64,000 bases of DNA from a virus (IMGVR_UViG_3300020183_000042:20736-84735), one strand, 5' to 3'. Numbered from the stretch's first letter, positions 48,943 through 63,642 are shown. A program made the numbers and translations. The notes: a model not told the origin generated them from the sequence alone.

Positions 48943-49360
48943 TTTTGCTCCTATTTATATAGATGGTGGAAATTATGCAGAAAAGAAGTGTGAGTGATAA
49001 AAATATCCAACAAAGAGTTTCATTCATGGTCGTCAGTCTCTTTGGAATATGAGTAGTCTAAGTAGGAATAAAGGGAACCCCAAAGTATTAGACAAATTGA
49101 AATTATAATGGGGCTGTAATCCCTCATAAGACCCAGGGATTATCGTTCATACTTTCTTTTCCTATCTGGAAAATTCTTCATAAAATCTGGATACTCGTTG
49201 GTTACTGTGGGAATAGTGGGGCTTGGTTTCAATAGAAGATATAGAATCCAAATATAAATACTAGTAGTAAGAACCAATCCCAAAAATAAAATCATCTTAA
49301 TCTCCTTTTTTCACTGACTATGAGCAACTGGGGCAAACTTATTAGTTGGGGTAAAACAAA

Positions 49361-49543
49361 TTATTTCTCCTCTTTCTTATATTCTAGTTTTAGAACGTGA
49401 CTAGTATCTTCGGTGGTAATATTTCTAATCTCCAGTATTAAAAGTTTGTTTTGTATATTCTCCCTATTTTCCTGAATGAGTTTATTAATATCTGCTATAA
49501 TTTTTTCTGCCGCAATAGACCTATCTAGTTTATAGACTATCAT
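49361..49543 (-). CDS. Hypothetical protein flanked by two 45-bp elements
   Basis: ORF lies exactly between the copies at 49357 and 49549. Confidence 0.55.
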   Translation of the reverse strand: MIVYKLDRSIAAEKIIADINKLIQENRENIQNKLLILEIRNITTEDTSHVLKLEYKKEEK

Positions 49544-50083
49544 ATCTCGCTGACTACGACCAAAAAAATCAAACCTAAAAGGTTGGCTGGGACAGGTGGG
49601 ACTTCCTGCTAAGAATATGATAGATCAAATGATCTCTCTCTGGAGCGTGAAAAATTTTATGCGGCTCACTATGATTTTAAGTTTTAAGTATTAAAATAAA
49701 TTTGAATGATCGTGGAAACTCTTATCATAAGAACACACATAAAAAGTTTTTTCACTTGACAGATTCTTGGCGATCTTGTATATATTATGCAGAGGGGAAC
49801 AGTAATATTCTACTAACTACTCTTAATAACTCTCATCCCCTGCATAACACCAAGAACGATAGACAAACAAATAACAGCGGTAATAATTAATCTCCTTAAC
49901 AAAGGCAAAGTTGACAAACGGCGCGCACCCTCCCATTATACAGTATCGGCCTGTGAACGCAAACCCTTGTGGGACCAGGGGTTATATAACTGGCTGGATT
50001 TGGGCCAATTTACGAAAGTTTTTGAGATGATGATAAGTGGTGTATAGTATCTATAGAGATACCCTACATTCGGAGAATCATTC

Positions 50084-50407
50084 ATGGCATTTAATCCCAG
50101 CCCCACAGGATATTTTAACGGAATAGTAACATTAGCATCAGGTGACTCGACTCCTAGTAGCGGAGTATTCTTTCCATATTCTGCATTTGAAAGTTATAAT
50201 GCTAGTACTAGTGGTGATATTAGACAGTTAGTATATTCATTTATTGAGAATATCTATGATGAATATGATTCTCTAGCATCAGAAGATAAACCATCAAAAA
50301 TATCCATATCAAGAACATCCACAGTTCCAGAAGATAATATTATTCGTAATACTTATAATCTAGTTATTAATCTAGCATATGAAGGATTACTGGTTGTTAA
50401 TGAGTAA
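50084..50407 (+). CDS. Hypothetical protein (possibly virion-associated), opposite strand
   Basis: GGAG RBS; TGGTGTATAGTAT motif upstream; Ser/Thr-rich. Confidence 0.7.
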   Translation: MAFNPSPTGYFNGIVTLASGDSTPSSGVFFPYSAFESYNASTSGDIRQLVYSFIENIYDEYDSLASEDKPSKISISRTSTVPEDNIIRNTYNLVINLAYEGLLVVNE

Positions 50408-50627
50408 TATCTTTCATTGGCGACCATTCGGGATAAATCATTTTATACAAACCAGGAAAAGTATCCATTAAATCCCTTCTCTGCTTAATTTCCATAGTAC
50501 TAAGCAAACGCTCAAGTACAACCCTAATCTGATAGGGACTCATATTATCCAGACTAGGTTTATGATCTTTTCCCACTAGGCTATAATCAGTTCTCATTTT
50601 CTTTCCTTTCTGCATAAATAGAACCAT
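50397..50627 (-). CDS. Hypothetical protein
   Basis: AAAGGAA RBS before MRTDY. Confidence 0.55.
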   Translation of the reverse strand: MVLFMQKGKKMRTDYSLVGKDHKPSLDNMSPYQIRVVLERLLSTMEIKQRRDLMDTFPGLYKMIYPEWSPMKDITH

Positions 50628-50951
50628 ACCTTTGGCTGACTACCAGCAACGGCAGCAAATCCGCTAGATTAGGTAAAACAGATTCTTATTTTTTGCAGCA
50701 AAATAAACAGTAGAATAGTGCTGCTATCATAATAAAGATTTCCAAACTAATCTAGTCTCCTAATATTAGTCATAAACCCAGTAGTACCAACACCTTACGT
50801 TACATTGTATCGTCAAACCAGTGGACTTGCAAGCAACCTTTTTGAGATTCTTTGACTAAGTTTCGTAATCGTTACCTTAAAAAATTGTAACTTGACATTT
50901 TGGCAGGCGGCGCGCCCGGTCTGCCATTTTGGCAGTCAACATATGTACGCA

Positions 50952-50986
50952 GAAAAGCCGCCGCAGGATTTCTCCCACGGCGGCTC
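50952..50986 (-). terminator. Intrinsic terminator after the DUF932 gene
   Basis: AGCCGCCGTGGG-AGAAA-TCCTGCGGCGGCT-TTTCT. Confidence 0.75.
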
Positions 50987-51013
50987 TCACCGCGACACCC
51001 CACGAAAGGAAGG

Positions 51014-51958
51014 TCAAATAGCGTTGGCAAACTCTAGAGCACTCTCCAACGCCTTATTATTCTCATTAGCATTTTGACCGAACCACAAACTATCGAGACG
51101 ATTATCGGTGGTACGACCCTTACCATAGTTAAGATATTCATTGAAGCCATTATAAGCAGCCCACCAAGTACCAGCCACACCAACAGCACTCTGCTTCGGA
51201 CCCTCAATACGAGCCAGAATATCGTCCATAATATTACGGGTACGAGTCTTAATATCCTCGTCAGCACCCTTAATATTCAGCACAATCTTAACATACTTCT
51301 CAATATCCTTCTGGTTGAACTGCTTGGTAGCCAGGAAACGATACTGTTCCGCAGTAGCCTCAAATCCAGCGTTAATATTGTCCATAACATCACGCACCGT
51401 TTCCAGATTCTTCTGGCTGGAGCGGGTATGACGAATACGGATCAGTTTACTATCATTATGCTTGTGGGCATAAGACAGCGTATTAACACACACAACACGA
51501 ATCGGGGTATAACCCACGCGAATAGCAGTCGAGCCGTCGTGACTATTACTTAGCAGGATAAACTTGCTGACCTCATCACCGCGAACAATCTCGCTGTTAT
51601 CACGATTCAACTGAGCAAGTACCCAAACCTTCTGACCGCTATGAAGCGATCCGGCAGTATGAATAGCACACTCATTAGCATCCAGAAATGGCTGGAACCA
51701 ATCAAAAGCATCCTTATTCTGGAGCGGGGTATAACGCGGACCCACAACACCCAGGATGCTACCATCGGTCTTACGATAGGTTGCACGATGGTTAACGGGT
51801 GTACCGTCAACAGTCTGCAAATCCTTCAGTCCGACTTCCCAATCCAGACCAGCCTCGACAATAGCGTCGTTAATCGTGACGCCCTCATCAACCTTGTTCC
51901 CCAGACCGTGCCAGGGAGTCTCACCGACAAACATCATCTTCTCAACAGCAGCAGGCAT
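51014..51958 (-). CDS. DUF932/DUF945 phage/plasmid protein (TIGR03299-like)
   Basis: PWHGLG, AGLDWEV, LGVVG.RY..LQN..AF, AGSL..G..VW, LL.NSHDGS, RVVC.NTL, T.WAAYN. Confidence 0.88.
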   Translation of the reverse strand: MPAAVEKMMFVGETPWHGLGNKVDEGVTINDAIVEAGLDWEVGLKDLQTVDGTPVNHRATYRKTDGSILGVVGPRYTPLQNKDAFDWFQPFLDANECAIHTAGSLHSGQKVWVLAQLNRDNSEIVRGDEVSKFILLSNSHDGSTAIRVGYTPIRVVCVNTLSYAHKHNDSKLIRIRHTRSSQKNLETVRDVMDNINAGFEATAEQYRFLATKQFNQKDIEKYVKIVLNIKGADEDIKTRTRNIMDDILARIEGPKQSAVGVAGTWWAAYNGFNEYLNYGKGRTTDNRLDSLWFGQNANENNKALESALEFANAI

Positions 51959-52087
51959 AATCAACTCCTTCGTGGTTAGTGTCACTCGCTTCGATGCACT
52001 GATTCTACCATAGGTTATCGGCAAGTCAACAGGGCGGCTTGAAAGTTTTTTTCTGCCATTTTGGCAGCCGGGCCGGCCGCTCTGCCA

Positions 52088-52594
52088 TTATGGCAGTTCG
52101 GTAACATTCAGGAGAGGAACTCCCAAATCACGTTGGCACAATTTAGAACCATCAATGTTAGAGCGATAAGCACACTCATCCGGCATATAGCAATAAACTC
52201 CAACACATTTTGCCATTGGGATTTCTTCTTTGATAAGATTTTTAATACGACGAACTGTTCTTCCACTACAGATGAGATCATCAATAATGATATAACGATA
52301 GGGAGATACTCCCTCAATTTTAAAAGAACTATAACATCGTTCATGTTTTCTAATCACAATAATATGCTTATCAAGTAATTCTGCGATTTGTGGAACCACC
52401 ATCAATCCGCTAGTACCACAGCACGCGATACTATCAAAATCATTGATTATTTTTCTAAGATTACAAACAGCACGAATAATAATCTTGTTTCGTGTTTTAT
52501 GATTCAGAATAAGAGAAGTATAGGAAGAACCCTGAATATATCTACCATCATTCATTTTACGATGAGCATCAATATCAGAATCAAGAATATTCAT
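52088..52594 (-). CDS. Phosphoribosyltransferase domain protein
   Basis: G.SG, IRK, IIIDDLICSGRT PRPP-binding loop. Confidence 0.8.
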   Translation of the reverse strand: MNILDSDIDAHRKMNDGRYIQGSSYTSLILNHKTRNKIIIRAVCNLRKIINDFDSIACCGTSGLMVVPQIAELLDKHIIVIRKHERCYSSFKIEGVSPYRYIIIDDLICSGRTVRRIKNLIKEEIPMAKCVGVYCYMPDECAYRSNIDGSKLCQRDLGVPLLNVTELP

Positions 52595-52597
52595 AAA

Positions 52598-52689
52598 AGC
52601 GGATGGTACGATTTGAACGTACTAAGAAAGGAAGATAAAGCGTATTATTGCTTATAAATAGAATACTTGTCCCACCAAGTTGCATCCGC
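52598..52689 (-). ncRNA. tRNA-like RNA with no recognisable anticodon arm
   Basis: Perfect 7-bp acceptor GCGGATG/CATCCGC; D-like arm CTTG-GTGGGA-CAAG; T arm GTACG-TTCAAAT-CGTAC; ~43-nt AU-rich middle. Confidence 0.65.
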
Positions 52690-52699
52690 CGAGAAAAGG

Positions 52700-52876
52700 T
52701 TATTCGTCCGAAAGTTCATCCATTATGTCGTGATAATAACAGTCAAATTCCCGTTCATTAGAATAGTAGTAATCATACTCATCATCAGAGTAAATATCCT
52801 CGTCATCGTCCTCATAGAGAGCATCACTGTCCTCTACAATACGATCATAATCATACTCATATTCATCATCAAACAT
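52700..52876 (-). CDS. 58-aa extremely acidic, Tyr-rich protein
   Basis: Hand-translated MFDDEYEYDYD...; AAGGAG RBS; promoter upstream. Confidence 0.7.
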   Translation of the reverse strand: MFDDEYEYDYDRIVEDSDALYEDDDEDIYSDDEYDYYYSNEREFDCYYHDIMDELSDE

Positions 52877-52927
52877 AAGCCTTTTCTCCTTTATCCTATT
52901 CTACACCAAACGGGCCAAACTGTCAAG

Positions 52928-52998
52928 TAGGGGTGGAAGGTAATGCTCCTTCTTCAATAGATTAAAAGTCTATTGCATCACTTTAATGCTTCGCCCCC
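52928..52998 (-). tRNA. tRNA-Lys(TTT), degenerate (non-canonical T loop AGCATTA, A8)
   Basis: ATAGA-CTTTTAA-TCTAT anticodon arm; all four stems form. Confidence 0.65.
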
Positions 52999-53117
52999 GC
53001 AGGGAGATCCAACTATATCATAGGTTATCGGCTTGTCAATCCCGCTACTTCAAAGAAAATTTCTGTCATTTTGGCTGACTACAGCCACCCTAGCCAAATC
53101 TGTAGGATTAGGTAAAA

Positions 53118-53204
53118 CGGAATCTGAGGGATTCGAACCCCCGGAGGATTTTAACCCTCGGCGGTTTAGTAAACCGCTGCCTTAAACCACTCGGCCAAGA
53201 TTCC
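53118..53204 (-). tRNA. tRNA-Ser(ACT), long variable arm
   Basis: GGAATCT/AGATTCC-G; GCGGT-TTACTAA-ACCGC; GGTTCGAATCC. Confidence 0.88.
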
Positions 53205-53207
53205 AAA

Positions 53208-53280
53208 CTGCCCAAGTAGGACTCGAACCTACAACCCAGCGGTTAACAGCCGCTTGCAACTACCATTGTGCTACTGAGCA
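53208..53280 (-). tRNA. tRNA-Asn(GTT)
   Basis: AGCGG-CTGTTAA-CCGCT; GGTTCGAGTCC. Confidence 0.9.
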
Positions 53281-53309
53281 ACACTCGTAACTCTAACGTC
53301 AGCCTCCGA

Positions 53310-53380
53310 TTCCGGGACTACGATTTGAACGTAGAATAAAGGGTCCAAAGCCCTCTGTGATACCGTTTCACCATCCCGGA
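53310..53380 (-). tRNA. tRNA-Gln(TTG)
   Basis: TCCGGGA/TCCCGGA; GAGGG-CTTTGGA-CCCTT; GTTCAAATC. Confidence 0.87.
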
Positions 53381-53452
53381 AGCCAGCAGAGGGAATCGAA
53401 CCCCCGACAGGTTGTTTACAAAACAACTACTCTACCACTGAGTTAGGCTGGC
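53381..53452 (-). tRNA. tRNA-Thr(TGT)
   Basis: GTTGT-TTTGTAA-ACAAC; GGTTCGATTCC. Confidence 0.88.
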
Positions 53453-53487
53453 GAGACTACATATAATACTCATCACGCCAGTGCTTG

Positions 53488-53826
53488 TCAACGGCGGATC
53501 GGGTACGCAGTCGCTTGGGCCTGTTGTCCATAACTGTGTCCCGATACTCCTTGTGTCCCGTAGGGATTTCCCAACGCTTCTTGACCTTGATCTGGATATT
53601 CTCGTATTTTCGGCGGGAAGTCATACCATTGTCCGTTTTCGTGTTGATAAAAAACTTTTCTAAGGTTAGGATCGTAAGCCATCAGACAGTATTGTACAGG
53701 ATAGGTTGGTTTTGTCAATACGGGTTTTTGAGGCAAAGGGATTTTAATATCACCCTTTTGATAATCTTTCAATCCTGTATATGCTAATCCCAACAATGCT
53801 ACCAATACACCTATCCATTGTATCAT
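53488..53826 (-). CDS. Membrane-anchored hypothetical protein
   Basis: GAGGA RBS before MIQWIG; N-terminal TM; preceded by a sigma28-only promoter. Confidence 0.65.
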   Translation of the reverse strand: MIQWIGVLVALLGLAYTGLKDYQKGDIKIPLPQKPVLTKPTYPVQYCLMAYDPNLRKVFYQHENGQWYDFPPKIREYPDQGQEALGNPYGTQGVSGHSYGQQAQATAYPIRR

Positions 53827-53947
53827 ACCCGATCCTCTTTGCAAGCGCCCTCTGGAAACCATACCATTTTATCGGCAAACCAGCAGCAAAAACTTTAACT
53901 GCCATTTTGGCAGCTCGGCCGCGCCGCCTGCCGTTTTGGCAGAATAA

Positions 53948-54019
53948 TAGCCCCAGGAGGAATCGAACCTCCAATAACTGCTTAGAAGGCAGTTGTTATA
54001 TCCATTTAACTATGGGGCC
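53948..54019 (-). tRNA. tRNA-Arg(TCT)
   Basis: ACTGC-CTTCTAA-GCAGT; GGTTCGATTCC. Confidence 0.9.
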
Positions 54020-54021
54020 AT

Positions 54022-54064
54022 AAAAGCCGATAGCCGCCAGTATCACTACCAGCGGTCTATCGGT
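54022..54064 (-). terminator. Hairpin/terminator-like structure before tRNA-Arg
   Basis: CCGATAGACCGCTGGTA-GTGA-TACTGGCGGCTATCGG-CTTTT. Confidence 0.6.
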
Positions 54065-54084
54065 ATTATAGCATATTGTTATAC

Positions 54085-54333
54085 TCAGGCAACAGTCTCC
54101 GCTTCAACCTTGCTGTTGTGAGCATCACCAGCCTGCTTCGCGGTCACACCAGTGACCCTAGCACGCCACACCTTATAACCCTGCTCGCTAAACGCCTTGA
54201 CTTCGCCAGCCTTGACGTTAGCATGAACGTCACCCGGAAGTGCATCACTCAGGCAGGACGAAATCGAATCCACAACAGTATCACGATCCAGTTCATCGGC
54301 CACAACATCGACAATAAAAGAAAACTTCTTCAT
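54085..54333 (-). CDS. Hypothetical protein
   Basis: GGAGG RBS before MKKFS. Confidence 0.7.
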   Translation of the reverse strand: MKKFSFIVDVVADELDRDTVVDSISSCLSDALPGDVHANVKAGEVKAFSEQGYKVWRARVTGVTAKQAGDAHNSKVEAETVA

Positions 54334-54649
54334 AGCAAACCTCCAAGTTAGTGTTAGTTCCAAACCAGTAAACCAATCATATCACGAACCATATCATTTG
54401 TCAAGGGGCCAATCTGAACTTTTGTAGTGTTGAGATCAGTTGGCTTCTTGTCGTGTGATGCTATCATTCTACCATAGGTATCGGCACTGTCAACCTCCCT
54501 ACATGAATATTTTTTGGGTGCCATTTTGGCAGCTCGGCCGCACCGCCTGCCGTTTTGGCATTTGGCTTTATGCTAGGCGTTCAGTACACAACATTCACAA
54601 CCACAAGCGGCCAAGCTCACCATCTCACGAATCGTCATGCCAACATTGA

Positions 54650-55057
54650 TCATGTTCTTTCCTCCAAAACGTAAACTTGTTTGCCTTGTGTAATCAGAGA
54701 GTCATATTGTGAATCGTCCCATGCGAACTCTCCACAATCACTTTCTCGTCGCCAGTAAACATCGCGGATTGGATTGTAATACAACTTCTCTAGATTGTCA
54801 ACACCAATCTCATTATTTATGATAACCGTATCACACTTTACCCAACCAGCCACATCCTTCACACCAGCCTCATGAACTTTCTTAGCCTTATTCACTTTAT
54901 TTACCAGTTTGCAACTCAACATCTCTAACTGATAAAGAGCCGGATCATAATAAAACTCTTGCAGTTTCTTTCTACCACACATGGCCTTGACTTGCCAGTG
55001 CATATAGTTTGGCCCACGAGCCAGATGAAATCGTACTTCGTAGTGTGTTCGTGTCAT
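54650..55057 (-). CDS. Hypothetical protein, leaderless
   Basis: RFHLARG.N..HWQV motif; ATG 6 nt after TATACT -10. Confidence 0.7.
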   Translation of the reverse strand: MTRTHYEVRFHLARGPNYMHWQVKAMCGRKKLQEFYYDPALYQLEMLSCKLVNKVNKAKKVHEAGVKDVAGWVKCDTVIINNEIGVDNLEKLYYNPIRDVYWRRESDCGEFAWDDSQYDSLITQGKQVYVLEERT

Positions 55058-55149
55058 GCGACTAGTATACCTTATTGGTTATTGGTTGTCAAGACTATAC
55101 ACTTTCGCTGACTATCGCCAAGACCGCAAATCCGTAGGATTAGGAAAAA

Positions 55150-55227
55150 CAATGTCGGCTTCCGCCATACTCGACCAGCATTTCAGATAGCCTCTTTTGA
55201 TATCATTGTGGCTATCTCCGTACATTG
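55150..55227 (-). ncRNA. Candidate multi-stem small RNA
   Basis: CAATGT/ACATTG closing stem; AGATAGCC/GGCTATCT; GGC-GGAA-GCC; own promoter; 45-bp element abuts 3' end. Confidence 0.5.
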
Positions 55228-55336
55228 TTCGTTCTAAGTATACCCTATAGATCGGCATTATCAATAGGATTCTTTAGTGCCATTTTGGCAGATCGGCCGC
55301 GGCTCCTGCCGTTTTGGCAGGAGTTATTCTATTCCA

Positions 55337-55585
55337 TTATTTTCCCCTCCCAATAATCAAACACGGAGTACCAACCTTCTCATCCGTAAACTTCACACAC
55401 GCATGAGGCCCATAATACCAAGCATTATTCTGTGAGAAATCGAATACAATCTCTTCGATCTTCAACCCCACATCATTATACCCACCCTCATACAGACCCG
55501 ATGGCCAAGAAATCCCACCAAGAGTAAGAACCCGCATATCGCCCGGATAGTTCTTCAACTGCTCAATAAGTTCAGAAACGGTCAT
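55337..55585 (-). CDS. Hypothetical protein (MTV.ELIE.L..YP.D..V...GYEGG family)
   Basis: Common phage N-terminal motif. Confidence 0.65.
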   Translation of the reverse strand: MTVSELIEQLKNYPGDMRVLTLGGISWPSGLYEGGYNDVGLKIEEIVFDFSQNNAWYYGPHACVKFTDEKVGTPCLIIGRGK

Positions 55586-55625
55586 TTTACAGTCTCTTTC
55601 TGCTGTTTCTGCCACTCTAATACCA

Positions 55626-55760
55626 TTACCGATACTTGAGACGTATCATAACATCGCGAGCAGACCAGAGAATATCCCAAAATCGCTCATCACGATACAT
55701 CTTCCAATCTTCCTCAGTAATCATACCTTTCATGTACCATCTAAACATCTTCTCGTACAT
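55626..55760 (-). CDS. 44-aa hypothetical protein
   Basis: Hand-translated; AAAGGA RBS. Confidence 0.5.
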   Translation of the reverse strand: MYEKMFRWYMKGMITEEDWKMYRDERFWDILWSARDVMIRLKYR

Positions 55761-55789
55761 TGTTTTTCCTTTCTATATACTTGTGTTGA

Positions 55790-56627: not shown

Positions 56628-57103
56628 TCAAGCGGCCAAAACTTTACCAAACATCTTTTTTCCCACACGCAAATCTCTGTGGCTATATTTAGAACCAACA
56701 TATTTAGCAACAGTTCTAGTATCCATAACCCTAGCGGTCAAACCCTCTGGGCTAACAAACACCATAACCAGTTTGTGAAAGTTATTGGGGCAAATATGCT
56801 GAAACTTATAAGTATACTTGATTGTTCCACCAACAATGGTCATTCTGGCCAGACTAGACTTGACCTCTACCTTGCGACCATTCACAAGCATATCAAAAGA
56901 GTGACTACCACCAATATAAGAAACAGTGTGACCAGCATCCTTATAATAATCCCTAATCATACGTTCAATCGCACCACCCCTTACTGACTACTCATCCTAG
57001 ACAGTCTATAGGCCAACATATTCTTTTTCGGGCAAAAAATACTTTTCTTGTGGAATCCACGAACTTCGCACAAAACCTTATTCAAATGAGTTGTAGTAAA
57101 CAT
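56628..57103 (-). pseudogene. PD-(D/E)XK nuclease-like gene with a frameshift near 56983
   Basis: AAAGGAG-ATG at 57103 runs 40 codons to TAA; another frame carries RGGAIE...FDMLVNGRKVEVKSS. Confidence 0.6.
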
Positions 57104-57208
57104 AGTGATCTCCTTTGGGCGTATTCTAATACTAAATATCGTCTTGTCAACAGATAAAACTTTATTGCCATTTTGGCAGTCGGGGCGCCCGGTCTGCCGT
57201 TTTGGCAG

Positions 57209-57454
57209 TTATTCATCCTCTTCGAATAGTTCGGGCTGTGATGCCAAGATAACATCCTCTGTGCGAATAACAGTAGTAGTAGGTGTAGCAGTTAGATAAT
57301 CTCTCATACCACATTCATCAACATAAAAATATTCATCGATAACATCATTCTTATTACAACCCATAAGAGTTCTAACAGCCGCCTCCAAAGGATCGCAGCA
57401 ACTAGTAATAAGTTCAGCAGTATTACTCTTTACATAAAACTTAGGCATGATCAA
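57209..57454 (-). CDS. Hypothetical protein
   Basis: GGGAG RBS; coupled. Confidence 0.6.
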   Translation of the reverse strand: MIMPKFYVKSNTAELITSCCDPLEAAVRTLMGCNKNDVIDEYFYVDECGMRDYLTATPTTTVIRTEDVILASQPELFEEDE

Positions 57455-57711
57455 CTCCCTAGACTAATCAAAACAAAACCATCATCATTATAACACTCGT
57501 CATAATCTAATGTGTCATTGACAATCTCGGCATCATAAAGAATAGTATCTAAATCTCGATTGGTCATAAGAGTATCATAGTTAGTACCAAAACTGATATC
57601 ACTATCACAAACTGCCTGAATAACCCTATCGTAGTCTAAATCGTTATGCTTACACACGTCTTTGAGCATCAAATAAGTATAACTATAACTTCTCATTATT
57701 TTGTCTTTCAA
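57451..57711 (-). CDS. Hypothetical acidic protein
   Basis: Coupled ORF. Confidence 0.55.
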   Translation of the reverse strand: MKDKIMRSYSYTYLMLKDVCKHNDLDYDRVIQAVCDSDISFGTNYDTLMTNRDLDTILYDAEIVNDTLDYDECYNDDGFVLISLGS

Positions 57712-58412
57712 TGGGCGGGAAACAAAACATTAGCCAGACCACGCACACACAAGTCACATGATATACTATCCTTCGTGCCAGTGCAAGTGATTGTTGCTCG
57801 ACCACGACGGATTTCCGGGCAGACCACAAACTTGGTCGCGTTCAGTACCACCAACTTCGGCAGACTAGCCCTCCAAGCATCAGCCTTTTTCTTGCTACGG
57901 GGACGTTTCGGTGCAATCTTTTCGTCGCTATCACACCACGCGAACAACTTGAATCCTTGTGCTAGAGCCTCGCCCATATCGTTATCGTCGTGAACACTAG
58001 CATACACGGCCATATACTTGTCGAGACTAACAAGCCGACTATCATAAATATGGGTATAAAACCACATATCGGGCAGACTATCACCATCAGCAAGAATACT
58101 CTCACACGCCCATGTCACATTAGCAACATATTCTACGTCAAGTTCGCCGTTGAGAAACCAGTCACCCCGCTCGTGCCAACGGATACTCTTTTCACGACGC
58201 TTCGCATCCAGAATCATAGCACGGATTTTGTTTTTCTCTGTGACTATGTTAGCAAACCCCGCGGTACGGGCGTTTTTATACTGATTCTCGGTAGCCTCGG
58301 CATAGCAGCCGTTGCCGAGATAGTCACAATCGGGCGGACAAGTATCGCCAACGGGACGCGACACCACAACGCAACCCTTGCCCAACTTATCATTTCCGTC
58401 TGCGGTTTTCAT
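57708..58412 (-). CDS. Gp88-like Cys-rich protein (radical-SAM-related fold suspected)
   Basis: N.KLG, TCP..C.....CYA, IRWH..GD, W.YT, CP...C..C.LC, F..H; start MKTAD at 58412. Confidence 0.7.
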   Translation of the reverse strand: MKTADGNDKLGKGCVVVSRPVGDTCPPDCDYLGNGCYAEATENQYKNARTAGFANIVTEKNKIRAMILDAKRREKSIRWHERGDWFLNGELDVEYVANVTWACESILADGDSLPDMWFYTHIYDSRLVSLDKYMAVYASVHDDNDMGEALAQGFKLFAWCDSDEKIAPKRPRSKKKADAWRASLPKLVVLNATKFVVCPEIRRGRATITCTGTKDSISCDLCVRGLANVLFPAH

Positions 58413-58601
58413 ATTTGTTTCTCCGTGTCTCTCGATTCTACAGTGTGGTATCGGCTTGTCAACACACAAACTTGAGCATAAAAAAAGATTTTGTTTGGCA
58501 CAAGGTTTGCTCGTTGCCATTTTGGCAGGGCGGCCGGCCGAGCTGCCATTTTGGCTGACTATCGCCACGACTGCCAAATCCGTAGGATTAGGAAAAACAA
58601 A

Positions 58602-58674
58602 TAGCCCCACGGAGGATCGAACTCCGATCTCCGGGATGAAAGCCCGGTATACTAAACCATTATACTATGGGGCC
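58602..58674 (-). tRNA. tRNA-Glu(TTC)
   Basis: GGCCCCA/TGGGGCT; CCGGG-CTTTCAT-CCCGG; AGTTCGATCCT. Confidence 0.88.
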
Positions 58675-58823
58675 GACACTCGCTCTACCCAAACATTATC
58701 ACCGTGTTTTTTTTGAGCAAGTAGATAAGCGTTCATTTGAGAAAGAGACACAACATATCCAACAAAGCGATTATTCTTGAAAACTCTCCAAATATAACCA
58801 CTATAGCAAAACGCGGTATTCAT
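58665..58823 (-). CDS. 52-aa leaderless ORF whose stop lies inside tRNA-Glu
   Basis: ATG 6 nt after TAGAAT; hand-translated MNTAFCYSGYIWRVFKNNRFVGYV... Confidence 0.55.
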   Translation of the reverse strand: MNTAFCYSGYIWRVFKNNRFVGYVVSLSQMNAYLLAQKKHGDNVWVERVSAP

Positions 58824-58927
58824 ACGGTTATTCTAACAGTTAGTATCGGCTTGTCAAGAGGCAAAACTTTAGTGTCATTTTGGCAGTTTTCGCGGCCGGC
58901 CTGCCAAGATGGCAGAGCCAGAACCCC

Positions 58928-59332
58928 TCAAAAGAGGAGGCTGGCCAAGCCGGTCTTGAAAGCCACCCCACCCAGGAGGGGCCGACGCACGTTAGTGGTA
59001 CGCTCCGCATAGAAGTTGCGAATCTTACCATCGGGCGTTTGAGCAGTCACCAAATGCTGGCTACGCTGAAACGTCGGATCATCCCTACGATAGCGACTCT
59101 TACGATTGAGTCGAGCAAGATAATCCGCGGAAAACTCGTGAACCTCAAGCACCTTTGCCATGAACCGCTCACGATCACCCGTGACCGGCTGCACATACTC
59201 AAAGTTATACACACCACCAACCTTAGCGTTGGTCAGACTATCGTGAAGACCAGAAAAAAGATGAAAGCACACAAAAGCCACAACACCAGCAACCAACCCA
59301 CAACCAATCGCAACCATAGTCATCGTATCCAT
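58928..59332 (-). CDS. Membrane-anchored protein, WYL-like beta domain
   Basis: N-terminal TM; F.Y......R.....V; G.IRNFY..R. Confidence 0.6.
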   Translation of the reverse strand: MDTMTMVAIGCGLVAGVVAFVCFHLFSGLHDSLTNAKVGGVYNFEYVQPVTGDRERFMAKVLEVHEFSADYLARLNRKSRYRRDDPTFQRSQHLVTAQTPDGKIRNFYAERTTNVRRPLLGGVAFKTGLASLLF

Positions 59333-59575
59333 AGTATTAGCCTTTCGTTGTTATATCCCAAACTCAATAAAACTAGTATACCACACTTATCGGCGTTTGT
59401 CAAGCGTCAACTTCACAAAGTTTAGTTGTCAAACGAAGAAAATATTTTTGCCATTTTGGCAGATCGGGCGCCCAGGCTGCCATTTTGTCTAACTACAGCC
59501 ACCCTAGCAAATCCGGGAGGATTAGGAAGAACAAGCCCGCCGCATCAATCCCTACTCTTTGGGGGTCGGCGTTTG

Positions 59576-59926
59576 TCAAGCGTCAACTTCAACATTTTCC
59601 AAAAGATGCTCCGCGATTTCTAGCCAGTTAGTTACAGAAAGAGCAGCACCAAGCAAGTCTGCCCATACACTCGCGGTCAACTTTGTTTGTTCAAGTATTT
59701 CGTCCTTGGCTTCTTCGTAATAATCCCTCAGCCTATCAGCCATTAGATACACGGCCTCGTCCATGCGTGACATACCGATATCGGTATTGTCGCGTGTGTG
59801 GTTGTGGTATACATCTTCCGCAACTTCTCGCCAGTAATCGTGGGTACCTTCTTCGTTGTCCATCCACAGATTCACAACCCACGTTTCGTAGTTAGTCCAG
59901 CCGTTGTAGTTCTTGTCGTTGTCCAT
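59576..59926 (-). CDS. Conserved phage protein (YNGW.NYETW family)
   Basis: YNGWTNYETW...LW.DN, NW.EIA; AAGGAG RBS. Confidence 0.75.
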   Translation of the reverse strand: MDNDKNYNGWTNYETWVVNLWMDNEEGTHDYWREVAEDVYHNHTRDNTDIGMSRMDEAVYLMADRLRDYYEEAKDEILEQTKLTASVWADLLGAALSVTNWLEIAEHLLENVEVDA

Positions 59927-59990
59927 TCTTTCTTTCTCCTTGGTATCCCTCAAGTCTACTCTATATATCGGTTTGTCAACCCCCGAAACT

Positions 59991-60248
59991 TTACTTTTGC
60001 AAGTATTCGATTTCCTGGCCGTTAGCGATCATGGAAGCATACAGTTCGATGCGACGATCCTTTTCCCGCTTTTCGATTTGATGATCCGTTTCGATTCTTT
60101 CGCGTCGGTCACACTTAGCATCCAATGCGGCCAGCGTCACACTATCGGTGCGATTATCGCGGAAGTCCTCGGGCAGCCAACTATTCGGCACCACAATACA
60201 ATCTTTGATAATCCGCTGAAACTCCGCCATCAGTTCGTAGCCGTTCAT
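59991..60248 (-). CDS. Hypothetical protein (similar to 62742..63116)
   Basis: GGAGG RBS before MNGYE; FQR.I and R...(Y/L)A motifs shared. Confidence 0.6.
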   Translation of the reverse strand: MNGYELMAEFQRIIKDCIVVPNSWLPEDFRDNRTDSVTLAALDAKCDRRERIETDHQIEKREKDRRIELYASMIANGQEIEYLQK

Positions 60249-60562
60249 GGTTTCCTCCGTTGTTGTGTGGATTATACAGATGGAAAAGTGGATGTCAACT
60301 CGAAAAAAAGCAGTAGCAAATACTGTGCCAAAGTGGCAGATCGGGCGCGCCACCCGCCATTGTGGCAGATGGTCTTTTTTAGATTAGGGATAGAAAGTAG
60401 GTCATAACAATAAAACCAGCCAGAAATCCCACAATATTTTCAATCATTATTTTCCCTCATTGGAAAAACCAAATCAGAAACAAACCAACTACTAACAATG
60501 CCAGCAACAAATCCCACACCTACTAGTACCCAGTTGATATCGACCATCCTTGGCCCCTTTCT

Positions 60563-60772
60563 TTATTTTTTATATCCAACCCAGAAAACTTCGCCCCGAT
60601 CATTAGTCATTTCCACAGGATTATCCAGAAAATCCCTACGAATCCTCAGATGCTCCCTGCGTCGTTTCCATCCGATGATACTATCACAAATGGCCCCACA
60701 AATCAATAGTAAAAACTCCACAAGGCCCACAGCCATTATTGGAAAAGCGATGAATAGTACAATATATTTCAT
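60563..60772 (-). CDS. Small membrane protein
   Basis: ATGA coupling; TM segment. Confidence 0.55.
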   Translation of the reverse strand: MKYIVLFIAFPIMAVGLVEFLLLICGAICDSIIGWKRRREHLRIRRDFLDNPVEMTNDRGEVFWVGYKK

Positions 60773-61080
60773 CCCTGCACCACCATATTTTCCATAAAAG
60801 GATATTCCTTGCCGTTGATTCTCACAAACCATTCGTATTTTCGCTGGTACACTCTCACCGGGCTATACTGGTTTATTCTATCCTTGGTTGTGGCCGTTTG
60901 CCATCCCCCCGTTTGCAGGGTATAGGTATTGTCAGGATGAATCTTCACCACATAGGTGTTGTGGAGCAAAATGCCCACGCTGCCGTCACTCAGAATCTCA
61001 GCGTAGGTGTTGTTGCCGATCTTCCGGCTATCCTTGTTCTGCTTGCCCCGAACCATATTGACCGCTTCGGTGTGAGTCAT
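60769..61080 (-). CDS. Conserved phage protein
   Basis: K..NNTY, LH.T.V, GGW.T.TTK.RIN. Confidence 0.7.
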   Translation of the reverse strand: MTHTEAVNMVRGKQNKDSRKIGNNTYAEILSDGSVGILLHNTYVVKIHPDNTYTLQTGGWQTATTKDRINQYSPVRVYQRKYEWFVRINGKEYPFMENMVVQG

Positions 61081-61220
61081 TTCAACGCTCCGTATAGTTA
61101 GTGAGTTCATTTTTTCCTCTTTCCTTTATATCGGTATTCTACAGCCCAAACTTTACTTGTCAAGCACTTTTCGCTGACTACAGCCACACCAGCCAAACCC
61201 GGAGGGTTAGGTGAGACAGT

Positions 61221-61373
61221 CTACTCCTTCCAGTTGTCGTTGTATTCGGGATCGGTAGGGTCGGGATAGTATTCAAGGATTGGGGTACAATGCTCAAGGC
61301 AGCAAGCACAGAAATCGTAGCCTTGAACCTTGTCGCCGCAGCAATCGGAAACTATCACTTCAATCATTCTCAT
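61221..61373 (-). CDS. 50-aa Cys-rich protein (SDCCG...C..C.EHC)
   Basis: Hand-translated; paralog of 63187..63381. Confidence 0.6.
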   Translation of the reverse strand: MRMIEVIVSDCCGDKVQGYDFCACCLEHCTPILEYYPDPTDPEYNDNWKE

Positions 61374-61556
61374 GGTCAACTTCCTTTCTTCTATCTTTAT
61401 ATCGGTATTCTACAGCGTAAACTTGAGATTGCAAGCGAAATTTTCAAATATAATTTCATGCCAAATAAAAAATATTTTTGTGGCACGATATTTGCTATGT
61501 CTGTCAATATGGCAGATCGGGCGGCCGCGCTGCCATTTTGGCAGTCGCGGTTTTGC

Positions 61557-61775
61557 TCAATAATCGTTATCCTCCCCGAAATAGCCGTAGTCCTCGTCGG
61601 TTCCCCAACCCGCCGACTCCATCGCACTATCATGGTCGCCATCCGTGCTGTCGTCGTAGAAATCGTCGTAGTCGTCGTAGTTAGGATCGTCGTTGTCGTG
61701 CGATTCGTCGTCGATCCACGGCCAAATCGTACGCTCCGCCATATCATCAAATCGGTCACAAGAATCATCGCTCAT
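61557..61775 (-). CDS. 72-aa highly acidic protein
   Basis: GAGGAG RBS; SAG.GTDEDYG motif; 28/72 D+E. Confidence 0.7.
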   Translation of the reverse strand: MSDDSCDRFDDMAERTIWPWIDDESHDNDDPNYDDYDDFYDDSTDGDHDSAMESAGWGTDEDYGYFGEDNDY

Positions 61776-61802
61776 CGTATTCTCCTCATCGGGTGAGTCA
61801 TC

Positions 61803-62015
61803 TCAAAAAACATCCCAAACAACGCTGTGCTCATCGACCATCGGCTCAGGATACAACTCATCCCACAGCCCCGCGACTTCCGCATAATCAAACGGACAGC
61901 AATCGGGCTCGTCAATCGGCTCGACCATACGCTCATCGACCAGTTCCGCGAGGATAGCGTTCACCGTGTCGGTATCTTCAAGCAAACCCATCATTCGAGG
62001 AAAGTGATTCATCAT
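61803..62015 (-). CDS. Acidic hypothetical protein
   Basis: AGGAG RBS; promoter upstream. Confidence 0.65.
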   Translation of the reverse strand: MMNHFPRMMGLLEDTDTVNAILAELVDERMVEPIDEPDCCPFDYAEVAGLWDELYPEPMVDEHSVVWDVF

Positions 62016-62203
62016 CGTTTCTCCTGGGGTGTACTACCGTTATACAGTCTATATCGGTGTTTGCAAGCGGAAAAAATAGTGGAAAAAAAGTTTTTTGCGG
62101 CACAACATTTGCTGATGCTGCCATTTTGGCAGTTCGGGCGCGATTTCTGCCATTTTGGCTAGCTGTCGCCATTTTCGCCAGCCGATAGGATCGGATGAGA
62201 CAG

Positions 62204-62419
62204 TCAACTTACTCCCATCCATGAGGCGTTTTCTACACAATAATCATAAAACATATCGTTCAACATATCACGATAGTTACTATCGGTCAACCGGCGACGA
62301 TCCATCGTAAACTCACACTCAGCATAGATTCTACCGTCCGGAGTTGCAAGGAAAGAAATCTGGTAACTCTCGCTTCCCCAGATCTGACGAATCGCATCCC
62401 GAATCTTATTCGTTTCCAT
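62204..62419 (-). CDS. Hypothetical protein
   Basis: AGGAGG RBS; promoter upstream. Confidence 0.65.
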   Translation of the reverse strand: METNKIRDAIRQIWGSESYQISFLATPDGRIYAECEFTMDRRRLTDSNYRDMLNDMFYDYCVENASWMGVS

Positions 62420-62741
62420 CTTCTATTTCCTCCTGCTAGGTATATCGGTATCCTACATTCGGTCTCTTGAATGTCAAATAGAAAAAATCGCTCAAAAAAA
62501 AGATTTTGTTTGGCACAAGATTTGCTCTGCCTGCCATTTTGGCAGTTTTCGCGGCCTGCCTGCCATTTTGGCAGCTTTTTGACTGGCTGACTGTCATTAT
62601 TGTCAGCCGATAGGATCGGCTAGGACAAACGGGGGGAGTATCCCCTATAAGGTGCCATTTTGGCAGATCGGGCGCGCCGCCTGCCATTTTGGCAGAGACC
62701 CCTCATTGGTGGGGGAGCGGCACCATACCCCTAGTGGGGGG

Positions 62742-63116
62742 TTATTCCCCATCCCACCCAAAGGGGGAGACTTCCTCTCCGCTGGCGAGAATCGCACCAT
62801 ACTGTTCGGCCAGAGCCTTTTTTCGCTCATCGGAACCGGGCTTTCCAACCTTGATAATCATCGTATCATCACCCCCCTTGTAGCGGGGGTCAACCCTCTC
62901 GACCTTACGCTTGCCCATGCGACGCAACGCCTTGCGATTGAACTTGAGAACCTTTTCGGTCATCACCTTACGCTGTCGATCACCGACACCATAAACATAG
63001 TCTACGCCGTCGATCACCCGATCATCGGGCACGTCGATAGCGTCGGGAATAGCGATTCCATCGAACCAGTTGATGATAGCACGCTGAAAATCACGCAGAA
63101 TCGGACTAGTTGCCAT
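62742..63116 (-). CDS. Hypothetical protein
   Basis: GGAG RBS before MATSP; GKPGS.ER..AL..QY motif. Confidence 0.65.
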   Translation of the reverse strand: MATSPILRDFQRAIINWFDGIAIPDAIDVPDDRVIDGVDYVYGVGDRQRKVMTEKVLKFNRKALRRMGKRKVERVDPRYKGGDDTMIIKVGKPGSDERKKALAEQYGAILASGEEVSPFGWDGE

Positions 63117-63186
63117 GATGCTTTGCTCCAAAGGATTATTGACTGTACCAAAAAACTTTTTTGACCACAACCCCCACCATGGGGGA

Positions 63187-63381
63187 CTACCATCCATTCT
63201 GCCGACAAGTCTCATCCCACGAGTCCTGTTCACGACGCTGGGAGCGGGTCATCGGCTCGTCGCCAAGGCACCACTCATCGCGGGCCGCATCGTACCCGTC
63301 GTCCGAAACATCACAATGCTCGCCACAACGCGAGCAAATATCCTGAAACCGAACCACAGCACCACAGCAATCACTTAGCAT
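63187..63381 (-). CDS. Cys-rich small protein (SDCCG...C..C.EHC)
   Basis: GGAG RBS before MLSDCC; promoter upstream. Confidence 0.65.
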   Translation of the reverse strand: MLSDCCGAVVRFQDICSRCGEHCDVSDDGYDAARDEWCLGDEPMTRSQRREQDSWDETCRQNGW

Positions 63382-63642
63382 TTTCAGTCTCCGTTTCTTT
63401 CTTTCTTTCTTTCTATATCGGATTATACGGTCTGAAACTTGAAAAGCAAACCGAAAAAAATCGGGAGAGAAAAATATTTTGTGGCACAGTATTTGCTGGC
63501 GCGATTTTGGCACAAGATTTGCTAGCCTGCCATTTTGGCAGTTCGCGCGGCCGATCTGCCATTTTGGCAGTCTGGCTGACTGTCATTATGGCAGCCAGCC
63601 GATAGGATCGGCTAGAACACCCCCCTAGAGGGGTAGAGCCCC

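Follow-up and report, generated by a model that had tools for sequence, protein, structure and literature searches.

A previously undescribed, co-oriented hairpin repeat in the early-gene region of uncultured giant phages

The REP/BIME sequences of enterobacteria are short (~35-45 nt) extragenic repeats made of a hairpin and a conserved non-palindromic end; they are chromosomal and mostly palindrome, are found in either orientation and as doublets, and are associated with RAYT transposases. REPs stabilise the upstream mRNA and, near a stop codon, affect translation termination. In phages, PeSL cassettes are composed of a promoter and a stem-loop, the latter lying at various places within the promoter, and in phi1/RB49 a reporter showed the stem-loop to act as a terminator or attenuator, according to the portions of PMC2839356 and PMC4122927 drawn on here. 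The promoters of the N4 virion polymerase are described in passages of PMC4496689 as template-strand hairpins with a 5-7 bp stem and a 3-nt loop that contains a sheared G:A pair, and GNA mini-hairpins, CCGAAGG included, are placed at the G4 origin, at ssiA and in the N4 promoters in passages of PMC13037366.

The element described here was found in an 84.7-kb viral contig, which contains exactly 11 copies of it, 41-45 nt each. All 11 lie between positions 49313 and 63618 (14.3 kb) of the window, by which we mean the whole 64,000-nt stretch of DNA that was analysed, and each one points in the sense direction of the minus-strand genes; every copy claimed in the initial annotation was recovered at its place. 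In the list that follows, bits are scores against a covariance model trained on 128 copies, those of the window among them, and a box is a 42-bp double palindrome.

Copy a, 49313..49357, minus strand: 38 bits, E 3.1e-08; degenerate hairpin; 3 nt past the stop of ORF 49361-49543, with the Shine-Dalgarno sequence and ATG of ORF 49140-49295 coming next.
Copy b, 49549..49593, minus strand: 53 bits; stem AACCU/AGGUU; the ATG of ORF 49361-49543 begins 5 nt after its tail.
Copy c, 50635..50679, minus strand: 55.4 bits; 6 nt past a 14-codon mini-ORF (read from the sequence) and upstream of ORF 50397-50627.
Copy d, 53074..53118, minus strand: 64.9 bits; abuts the tRNA-Ser 3' end; its tail overlaps a half-box, after which comes an early promoter with its -35 at 53039.
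Copy e, 55107..55150, minus strand: 68.1 bits; no box; preceded by the conserved non-coding stretch 55151-55240, with the -35 (55092) of the next early promoter ~14 nt further on.
Copy f, 58554..58598, minus strand: 72.1 bits; 3 nt past tRNA-Glu; its tail overlaps box 58515-58556.
Copy g, 59488..59532, minus strand: 48.7 bits; degenerate tail (TAGTTAGA); placed between a duplicated promoter segment and box 59449-59490.
Copy h, 61173..61217, minus strand: 66.7 bits; stem AACCC/GGGTT; no box; 3 nt past the stop of ORF 61221-61379, with an early promoter at 61163 directly downstream.
Copy i, 62158..62201, minus strand: 40.8 bits; CCGAU/AUCGG stem subfamily; 2 nt past the stop of ORF 62204-62419; its tail overlaps box 62119-62160.
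Copy j, 62586..62626, minus strand: 41 nt, 34 bits, fold z -2.6; flanked by two boxes; stem GCCGAU/AUCGGC; its 3' half is able to pair with the tail.
Copy k, 63575..63618, minus strand: 38.3 bits, fold z -1.8; upstream of box 63528-63569; a box-half-like palindrome replaces the direct 9-mers in its 3' half.

The neighbours that had been assigned to these copies were found as well: tRNA-Ser ends at 53117/53118 and tRNA-Glu at 58602, ORFs stop at 49361, 61221 and 62204, 2-3 nt from an element, ORF 49361-49543 is bracketed by copies a and b, and four copies (at 53074, 58554, 59488 and 62158) have their start within the final bases of a box or half-box. A covariance model search of the 84 kb placed all 11 copies on the minus strand with E <= 4.4e-07, and the best match after them has only E = 0.36; because the window copies were in the model, their scores are partly so by construction. 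For the head octamer GCTGACTA, 1.0 occurrence is expected in the window and 8 are present, a count that 0/100 shuffles reach; six of these eight occurrences are element copies, and those at 17839 and 26126 are not elements.

Members of the family are about 45-50 nt long, with ~20 positions almost invariant across otherwise diverged contigs. Read along the sense strand, the element opens with a pyrimidine-rich head, to which a triloop hairpin and a tandem pair of 9-nt units are joined, and it closes with a single-stranded tail that is almost invariant (TAGTCAGC); the spacing from hairpin to tail is 13-14 nt in 113/115 copies. The hairpin has a stem of 5-8 bp (223/255 unique copies), a loop of 3 nt in most copies and a conserved U.U mismatch, and diverged subfamilies retain it with different stems. 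The palindrome is limited to the central 13-19 of ~45 nt; the tail (...TAGTCAGC) is not the inverse complement of the head (TGTYTY...), and no -35/-10 pair can be read in the element itself. In 134/255 unique copies the sense-strand loop is T-N-C, which reads as G-N-A closed by C:G on the template strand, with the middle base free (A 67, T 48, G 10, C 9). Such a G-N-A loop closed by C:G on the template is a signature of DNA mini-hairpins in passages of PMC13037366, which speaks against an RNA reading. Within the two 9-nt units, the variable bases at positions 9 nt apart change together by identity. This is the strongest coupling within the element, and it lies outside the reach of RNA pairing, which does not explain it, another point against an RNA reading; we know of no described cis element that is under such an identity constraint.

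The initial annotation had proposed compensatory changes in the hairpin. The alternative stems AATCC/GGATT, AACCC/GGGTT, AACC/GGTT and GCCGAT/ATCGGC all exist, but their statistical support is modest: a fixed-register alignment of 128 copies has 12 cells with two-sided changes vs 8.6 in shuffles, 65/500 shuffles equal it, and the covariation of the hairpin in fixed register is not significant. Compared with mononucleotide shuffles, the hairpin region has a mean folding z of -1.9 (p <= 0.05 in 49% of 255 copies) and the 3' half a mean z of -0.75, and the whole 45-mers of 9/11 window copies fold no better than shuffles (z -0.31 to +0.56). G.U pairs number 101 on the sense vs 49 on the antisense strand in free folds and only 6 vs 4 in the canonical register, and the wobble-pair test picks no strand. 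We would also like to note that the hairpin, with 5 bp and a triloop, is weak as RNA, which counts against an RNA reading.

An nhmmer search yielded 340 copies in 136/184 sources, mostly other IMG/VR contigs. In all sources with two or more copies (94/94) the copies are on a single strand, and relative to the dominant ORF strand 207 copies have the same orientation, 12 the opposed one and 68 an unclear one. Five complete phage genomes (205-238 kb) carry 6-12 copies each, on one strand and in one region of 15-22 kb; in genomes G000-G005, a block of small ORFs and tRNAs of 14-22 kb contains all copies, and in G003 the block with the elements begins at a strand-switch point. At the gathering score, Rfam 15 has no match to the 11 copies, and at E <= 5 it gives nothing credible, with only chance matches in the tRNA region touching copy d; cultured phage records gave no match to the element, and among loci matched in bacterial genomes a real copy stands at only 1/120. 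A description in the literature was not found either, and "unnamed", as the element had been called, is apt: it is a real, previously undescribed repeat in the early-gene region of uncultured giant phages. A solitary CRISPR repeat, serving as an RNA anti-CRISPR mimic, is not supported by a search for exact matches. The pattern of 18 specified bases from the hairpin and plus-strand 3' end had 26 single matches in 185,579 species genomes and no locus with two or more, that is, no regularly spaced array; by our own estimate, ~17 chance matches are expected for this 18-base pattern.

At a typical site, the element lies directly past a stop codon or tRNA 3' end, and the next feature 3' of it is a start codon, a tRNA, an early sigma70-type promoter or a box. 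It stands past a tRNA at -2 to +12 nt in 34/264 contexts, a tRNA begins 3-5 nt after it in 4 contexts, and arrays of the kind tRNA-element-tRNA-element-ORF-element are seen. The upstream ORF terminates at the element's own TAA in 24/96 clear cases, and an open ORF starts <=18 nt from the tail, with no promoter or box between, in 43/262 contexts. An early -35 is found <=45 nt downstream of 103/266 copies (mode 11 nt), and in 55 of these 103 promoter-linked copies it is placed 9-11 nt after the tail; a sigma70-type promoter <=100 nt upstream accompanies only 6/264 copies, and 137/266 have neither promoter nor box <=45 nt. A box follows only 26/266 copies, and 11/16 boxes in the window are without an element. 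Ahead of the promoters in the window stands either a box, with or without an element, or, at copies e and h, just an element; the element therefore fills the same slot as the box. The region is rich in near-consensus sigma70 promoters, which point to the host polymerase.

Our preferred reading, which we hold tentatively, is that the element may be a boundary module of early transcripts that acts on RNA processing, stability or attenuation and has been spread by recombination, with a loose resemblance to PeSL or REP elements. A signal borne by the transcript is plausible: the copies are strictly co-oriented with genes and lie between stop and start codons or between tRNAs with no promoter between. 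With an early -35 downstream of 103/266 copies and few promoters upstream, its position is at the end of a unit rather than at the start of one. The element would be transcribed within a polycistronic early RNA and be active there, marking the end of a unit through endonucleolytic processing and/or an effect on the upstream unit's 3' end (protection or attenuation), and its tail would form a leader and a weak ribosome-binding region for the downstream unit. Copies may have been exchanged between junctions by mutual recombination, as proposed for the PeSL cassettes of T4-type phages.

Termination and antitermination, two roles suggested in the initial annotation, do not find much in their favour. 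Classical termination is not supported: the hairpin is not followed by a U-tract, the region has 15 terminator-like sites where 12.1 are expected, which is no enrichment, and stems just upstream of the U-rich head show no excess (23/227 vs 22/227 controls); antitermination is weakened by the small numbers of copies followed by a box (26/266) or preceded by a promoter within 100 nt (6/264). These same counts make it very unlikely that the element is a nut-like site of processive antitermination, where a single-stranded box and a short hairpin in the nascent RNA would lead to read-through of the box or of later terminators. A conserved single-stranded segment does lie beside a 5-bp hairpin, five window copies stand between a gene end and a box, and the head UGUYUY may loosely resemble the boxA consensus, but 11/16 window boxes lack an element, no U-tract can be read in the sense-strand sequence of the box, and many copies come directly before the next promoter, where read-through would be purposeless. 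Also improbable is a double-stranded DNA site at which a putative box-binding protein would regulate or insulate the adjacent early promoter. The 9-nt units are laid out 6+3 like a box half (arm, 3 nt, arm) and, like the box arm, start with TGG(C), copies j and k and their relatives have a box-half-like palindrome as their 3' half, four window copies overlap a box, copies e and h occupy the place that the box has at other promoters, and the preferred distance of the -35 (9-11 nt past the tail in 55/103) would suit such a site. However, 137/266 copies have no promoter or box <=45 nt, the exact box arm is almost never found in the units, a sequence-reading protein needs no identity between the variable bases of the units, and the stems vary in sequence yet stay complementary. 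A single-stranded or cruciform DNA signal, in which an extra-stable template-strand C-GNA-G mini-hairpin, a ruler of 13-14 nt and the tail would form a polymerase or primase start (an N4-type hairpin promoter or ssi-type priming site) for the following unit, is in our view unlikely. It agrees with the template loop of 134/255 unique copies and its free middle base, comparable GNA hairpins being carried by N4 promoters and G4/ssiA signals in passages of PMC4496689 and PMC13037366, with the constant spacing (113/115 copies), with the start codon, tRNA or conserved non-coding stretch that often lies within a few bases downstream, and with the strict co-orientation with genes; identity between the 9-nt units may be the constraint expected of a realignment step. 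Nevertheless, no homologue of the N4 mini-vRNAP, a divergent family searched without a positive control, was detected at E <= 1 in G000 and four complete genomes, neither the T7-type polymerase domain PF00940 (again without a positive control) nor a beta-subunit domain was found, and the near-consensus sigma70 promoters that fill the region suggest transcription by the host polymerase. The fit is also poorer for copies that precede a box or another promoter or whose first 12 nt are coding, and in free folds G.U pairs are commoner on the sense strand than on the template. We give little credence to the fuller proposal that the element acts as DNA and not as RNA, combining a template mini-hairpin start signal with prime-and-realign via the 9-nt units. 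In that case, the mini-hairpin would be extruded on supercoiled or transiently single-stranded phage DNA, and hairpin, ruler and tail would be read by a still unrecognised polymerase or primase of the phage or the host. The 9-nt length of the unit matches that of the RNA:DNA hybrid. Were this proposal true, the identity covariation would be explained, and hairpin promoters or priming sites, to our knowledge described until now for N4-like podoviruses and small replicons, would become a feature of giant phages.

A different possibility, which we regard as doubtful, is a recombination scaffold or selfish repeat with no expression function of its own, whose copies recombine and carry neighbouring genes with them in modular shuffling. 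It draws on 27 filled sites that have candidate empty counterparts at orthologous junctions, with clean presence or absence between the same flanks (tRNA-Ser, 2 nt, tRNA vs tRNA-Ser, element, tRNA; tRNA-Glu, promoter vs tRNA-Glu, element, promoter), on different 3'-half subtypes at one junction in different contigs, on tandem copies, near-tandem copies and solo tails, on arrays of paralogous small ORFs in which each member is preceded by a copy, and on the duplicated promoter segments that flank copy g; PeSL cassettes, too, are documented to recombine and to flank indels in passages of PMC2839356 and PMC4122927. That the element is dispensable at orthologous sites is, in its own right, a point against an RNA reading. 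Against a mere scaffold stand a length, a spacing and ~20 positions that are nearly invariant across otherwise diverged contigs, an orientation never seen reversed, the absence of terminal inverted repeats and, at the orthologous filled and empty sites, of target duplications, and conserved ends of 9-12 nt, which are short for homologous exchange. Moreover, the genomes searched yielded no transposase or recombinase: the Y1 transposase PF01797 is absent from all six genomes G000-G005 (control positive in 6/14 genomes), a serine recombinase or resolvase was not found in G000, and the tyrosine recombinase that the initial annotation had suggested looking for (PF00589, Phage_integrase) is absent from G000, G001, G002, G003 and G005, with the control positive in 14/14 genomes. 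With no recombinase among the search results, an integron-like site lacks support, and an attC-like or other site-specific recombination site for gene cassettes seems to us scarcely credible. The arrangement does recall one, in that small ORFs form a one-orientation array and a similar site, conserved at its ends and variable in the middle, comes after each of them, that indel polymorphism is seen and that ORFs terminate inside the site; however, one end is not the inverse complement of the other, the palindrome is confined to the central 13-19 nt, and most units have a promoter of their own. For the cassette recombination site that the initial annotation offered as one option, neither a recombinase nor complementary ends were found, but at orthologous sites the element comes and goes as a module, and the cassette idea therefore holds at the level of recombinational shuffling.

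Compared with described systems, the element is similar to the lambda nut site (boxA and boxB) in having a conserved single-stranded segment and a small hairpin on early RNA, and nutR, too, stands between a gene end and a terminator; however, it has a triloop where boxB has a GNRA-like pentaloop, and its copies are too many and mostly not before a terminator. Like REPs, it is found just past stop codons or between co-transcribed genes and varies in presence between relatives. It differs from REPs in being phage-borne (1/120 matched bacterial loci has a real copy), in its single orientation (94/94 multi-copy sources), in a palindrome that makes up a third of its length and in the lack of a Y1/RAYT gene (PF01797) in G000-G005. 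With attC it shares conserved ends, a variable middle, a place after small ORFs in a one-way array and a stop codon that may be inside the site, but integrase and complementary core and inverse-core sites are missing and the cassettes have their own promoters. The likeness to N4, ssi and G4 signals, as these appear in passages of PMC4496689 and PMC13037366, lies in a template-strand hairpin with a stem of 5-7 bp and a G-N-A triloop closed by C:G, in a fixed distance to conserved downstream bases and in an early-region position; by the hairpin definition in PMC4496689, the loop is present in 134/255 copies and stems of 5-8 bp in 223/255. Genomes with the element have 6-12 copies each rather than the 3 of N4; other bases are conserved around the hairpin, host-type promoters dominate the region, and no matching polymerase was detected in searches that were partly without a positive control.

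The PeSL/PmSL cassettes differ from the element in including a promoter: the element has none of its own, an early -35 lies <=45 nt downstream in 103/266 copies only, and 137/266 have no promoter nearby. Its length, moreover, is fixed, its head and tail are conserved and it contains tandem 9-mers; its carriers are not T4-type by a single test, the Gp23 domain, which is absent from the five complete genomes in a search without a positive control. Nevertheless, its copies occupy a single 14-22 kb block of small orphan ORFs in G000-G005, and with 27 candidate empty counterparts the element is itself an indel. In the sections of Arbiol et al. 2010 (PMC2839356) and Comeau et al. 2014 (PMC4122927) drawn on here, PeSLs are likewise repeated intergenic modules of a plastic region crowded with small orphan genes, where stem-loops are combined with strong sigma70-like early promoters and are tied to insertions, deletions and replacements between relatives, and they are proposed, as the element may be under our preferred reading, to mark unit boundaries and to mediate shuffling.

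The eleven copies (a to k) of a repeat of about 45 nt that the initial annotation placed at 49313-63618 on the minus strand are real and correctly located. They exceed chance, the head octamer occurring 8 times against 1.0 expected, and a covariance model built from 128 copies, those of the window included, found all 11 on the minus strand at E <= 4.4e-07 with no other credible match in 84 kb. The neighbours reported for them (tRNA-Ser, tRNA-Glu, a non-coding stretch and three stop codons) proved correct, as did the overlap of four copies with a palindrome box and the bracketing of one ORF by two copies. The element had been called unnamed, and Rfam indeed holds no family resembling it; a literature search on intergenic motifs of jumbo phages found nothing relevant, and mimicry of a CRISPR repeat was rejected, no arrays having been found.

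Using a two-anchor pattern together with a pattern for the box (a 42-bp double-palindrome site), 183 loci were taken from IMG/VR, and nhmmer reported 340 element copies in 136 of 184 sources. All copies lay on one strand in each of the 94 sources with at least two, and relative to the dominant ORF strand 207 copies were co-oriented, 12 opposed and 68 unclear. Among the motif-bearing relatives are five complete genomes (205-238 kb; two have terminal repeats), and each of the five carries 6-12 copies by the model, on a single strand and within one block of 15-22 kb. In one of these, G003, the block is syntenic with the window and starts at a gene-orientation switch, and boxes, early promoters and elements all end after about 25 kb. 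An origin in bacteria, or as a host repeat, was rejected, as nhmmer recognized a real copy in only 1 of 120 GTDB loci with the two-anchor pattern (L195, a 3.4-kb contig of a metagenome-assembled genome), the others being chance matches; that one copy among 120 pattern matches aside, bacterial and archaeal genomes are without the element. The element is a new, well-delimited family.

The window covers the final 64 kb of a viral contig from IMG/VR, 84.7 kb long with a CheckV completeness of 61%, and its minus strand holds nearly all of its genes, among them those for rIIA, an ATP-dependent DNA ligase, UvdE, sugar-biosynthesis enzymes, PhoH and ribonucleotide reductase. Its RNA genes comprise nine or ten tRNAs (ARAGORN calls nine) and a tmRNA.

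RNA features of the window
33881-34237, minus strand: tmRNA (Rfam, 103 bits) with tag peptide GNNQLALAA
52928-52998, minus strand: tRNA-like sequence (Rfam, 41 bits), uncalled by ARAGORN, just downstream of copy d (53074-53118) and its promoter

Composition changes in a sharp step, from a G+C content of 26-38% over positions 1-48000 to 41-51% in the last 14 kb, and this G+C-richer block contains all elements, all boxes and most early promoters. A megablast of positions 49000-64000 returned no match among cultured phages, the only cultured-phage matches in a distant blastn of the tRNA-Glu, element and box stretch were to the tRNA-Glu of Cellulophaga phages, and rIIA is at most 26-37% identical to its cultured relatives. 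A search of the five complete genomes for a T4 Gp23-type capsid domain, run without a positive control, found none. The carrier is an uncultured giant phage, which we do not call T4-like.

In its genomic context, the element behaves like an optional boundary module of locked orientation that stands where early units end. A tRNA, mostly Glu or Ser, stands a few bases upstream in 34 of 264 contexts, and where the upstream ORF is clear (96 contexts), its stop falls just before the head or within the element, being the element's own TAA in 24 (one of which, at L045, is a spurious frame across tRNAs). Downstream, an early -35 lies within 45 nt in 103 of 266 contexts (mode 11 nt), a box is found in 26 and neither in 137. 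An open start codon follows no more than 18 nt from the tail in 43 of 262 contexts, and the tail reads AGA, AGT or AGG in 21 of these 43, against 29 of 102 copies before promoters. Sigma70-type promoters are rare on the upstream side, only 6 of 264 contexts having one within 100 nt. Arrays of the kind tRNA-element-tRNA-element-ORF-element exist, in which members of one small-protein family each have a preceding copy; these proteins of about 60-70 aa start MI.Y.L.K.I… and are encoded at 49361-49543 of the window (minus strand), at L027:12310-12520, and in L018, L029, L060, L081 and L034. The family gene of L027 has its final four codons and its stop within the next element.

Promoter-like sites in the window number 75 on both strands against 29.5 expected, and the 16 best all belong to the minus strand. 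Ahead of each promoter stands a box, an element plus a box, or only an element (copies e, 55107-55150, and h, 61173-61217). The initial annotation had also offered termination as a role, which is not supported, and an intrinsic terminator was rejected: the element has no U-tract, terminator-like sites are not enriched in the window (15 against 12.1 expected), and stems are not in excess just upstream of the head.

Transcript features of the element region
55151-55240, minus strand: candidate small RNA, preceded by an early-type promoter (-35 at 55264) and followed by copy e
50945-50985, minus strand: canonical intrinsic terminator, one of few in the region, a G+C stem then a sense-strand T-run, after a DUF932 gene and just before a box

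Many other contigs repeat the 3' end of the candidate small RNA (…GGCGGAAGCCGA…) ahead of their elements. We also observed many short G/C hairpins, CCCC(C)-N4-6-GGGG(G), at 62600-63900, several of them directly before elements j (62586-62626) and k (63575-63618); they recur before boxes in relatives.

Boxes and sigma54-type motifs of the window
16 sites within 50893-63569 (e.g., 53900-53941 and 62532-62573): 42-bp box of two 15-bp palindromes (arm, 3 nt, arm)
58496-58510, 61481-61495, 62098-62112, 62511-62525, 63482-63496 and 63508-63522, plus strand: sigma54-type motifs
60316-60330, minus strand: sigma54-type motif

The box, which lies upstream of most early promoters and recurs in other viral contigs (at least 79 stretches), has its palindromes always spaced 29 bp start to start around a G+C-rich centre, with the loop T-run almost always on the plus strand, and is probably a protein-binding or insulator site. 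Near-perfect sigma54-type motifs (TGGCAC-N5-TTGC, at most 1 mismatch) occur 8 times against 2.1 expected, seven of them in the element region, and six are antisense to genes and adjoin a box, keeping the register of its arms as a third arm would. Five phage records searched for a sigma54 activator domain yielded none. Real antisense promoters are one possible reading of these motifs; they could also trap polymerase or belong to the site of the box protein.

Read on the sense (minus) strand, the element opens with a pyrimidine-rich head, TGTYTYWCC, and continues with a hairpin whose 5-bp core stem, usually AAUCC/GGAUU, is extended by a conserved U.U mismatch and two C-G pairs and closes a 3-nt loop, U-N-C. 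Two tandem 9-nt units follow, each a 6-mer beginning TGG plus 3 nt, the second ending in TAG, and the near-invariant tail, TAGTCAGC(G/C)A(A/G)A, is continuous with the second. Of 115 pattern-scanned copies, 113 have a hairpin-to-tail spacing of 13 or 14 nt, and copies j and k carry a box-half palindrome in place of the 9-nt units. Solo tail motifs also occur outside full elements (e.g., L013:6941, L080:6467, L083:3201 and L148:5064); most share the same orientation, and a start codon often follows after a few bases. In all, 23 of 259 tail matches lie outside the elements called by nhmmer, some of the 23 in degenerate elements.

Support for the hairpin, for which compensatory changes had been claimed, is moderate: subfamilies retain it with alternative stems (AACCC/GGGUU, AAUCU/AGAUU, CCGAU/AUCGG and CCGAG/CUCGG) and its region scores a mean z of -1.9 against shuffles, but fixed-register covariation is not significant. 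As RNA, 9 of the 11 whole window 45-mers fold no better than shuffles, and RNAalifold found no consensus structure in the HMM alignment. An extended pairing between head and first 9-nt unit was rejected, only 35-57% of cells being paired, as was pairing of the second unit with the tail, which is restricted to some subtypes. Counts of wobble (G.U) pairs, 101 in sense against 49 in antisense for free folds and only 6 against 4 when the canonical register is used, choose neither strand.

The most distinctive property of the family is an identity coupling at offset 9. Among 255 unique copies, the strongest mutual information links columns 9 nt apart, across the two units, and the coupling is one of identity, not complementarity (best pair: CC 88, TT 61, GG 30, AA 18), with a mean identity of 0.52 at offset 9 against 0.21-0.38 at other offsets. 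Between near-identical copies (at most 6 differences), both coupled columns differ in 80 cases and a single one in 99, whereas in control column pairs both differ in 73 and one alone in 709. None of the 51 element columns is a cis partner for the variable 9-mer bases, nor is there a complementary partner within the element, and slippage in 9-mer copy number was rejected, a single-unit copy being found in only 1 of 115. Any mechanism must account for this unusual constraint, under which bases separated by 9 nt keep a concerted identity and stand at a set distance from a hairpin.

Candidate empty counterparts were found among the loci for 27 filled element sites. In one pair, two tRNAs lie 2 nt apart or have the element between them; in another, tRNA-Glu directly abuts the upstream A/T-rich stretch of a promoter or has the element interposed. 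Different 3'-half subtypes occupy the same junction in different contigs. The idea of a cassette recombination site thus held as to presence and absence at matching sites, but sites of gain and loss show no target duplications and no inverted termini, and the proposed tyrosine recombinase did not emerge, an integrase search of the phage record G000 and four complete relatives being negative; no resolvase was found in G000 and no Y1 transposase in six genomes (G000-G005). Spread and subtype swapping would be best explained by recombination among element copies. Copy g (59488-59532) and its box are flanked by two occurrences of one promoter segment (59388-59420 and 59560-59590), an arrangement that recombination between promoters might leave.

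As to function, we tentatively favour a role at the RNA level, because the element lies within operons and tRNA clusters, shares bases with stop codons and ribosome-binding regions, and is never inverted. The element would act in processing and/or in 3'-end protection or attenuation of the RNA of the upstream unit, and its tail would serve as a leader for the next. This reading carries serious caveats, namely the weak RNA hairpin, the non-selective wobble test and an identity coupling for which it does not account. A search for sequencing runs with positions 53001-63000 of the window listed no RNA run. A signal for starts at the DNA level, with a template-strand mini-hairpin at a fixed ruler distance from the conserved tail, appears unlikely. 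The ruler, with a start codon or tRNA soon after, would suit it, and on the template strand 134 of 255 copies have a G-N-A loop closed by C:G with the middle base free, a likeness to the extra-stable DNA mini-hairpins described in PMC4496689 and PMC13037366 for N4 virion-polymerase promoters and the G4 and ssiA priming signals. However, host-type promoters occur throughout the region, and five records yielded no N4 mini-vRNAP or T7-type polymerase (both searches without a positive control) and no beta-subunit polymerase domain.

A purely selfish or recombinational repeat seems to us similarly doubtful. The 6+3 unit layout common to element and box, together with the box-half palindrome that substitutes for the units in copies j and k, would fit a double-stranded protein site related to the box, for which we see a slim chance. 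A nut-like site, after the antitermination site of lambda, is very improbable, and a site like the attC of integrons even more so.

Most of the unknown genes with which large phages take over the host and counter its defences lie in their early regions, where the delimiting and shuffling of the many small units is poorly understood. The element provides a precise, searchable marker of unit boundaries across a clade of uncultured 200-kb-class phages, and its alignment and model are ready for finding further members. A role in processing or as a start signal, if shown, would make it a new tool-like cis element; should it be a recombination scaffold only, it would document shuffling like that of the PeSL (promoter-early stem-loop) cassettes outside the T4 group. 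Phage intergenic regulatory or recombination repeats are a kind already known, while the architecture and the identity coupling are new. Similar to the element, the PeSL cassettes of T4-type phages have been proposed, in PMC2839356 and PMC4122927, to undergo recombination among their copies.
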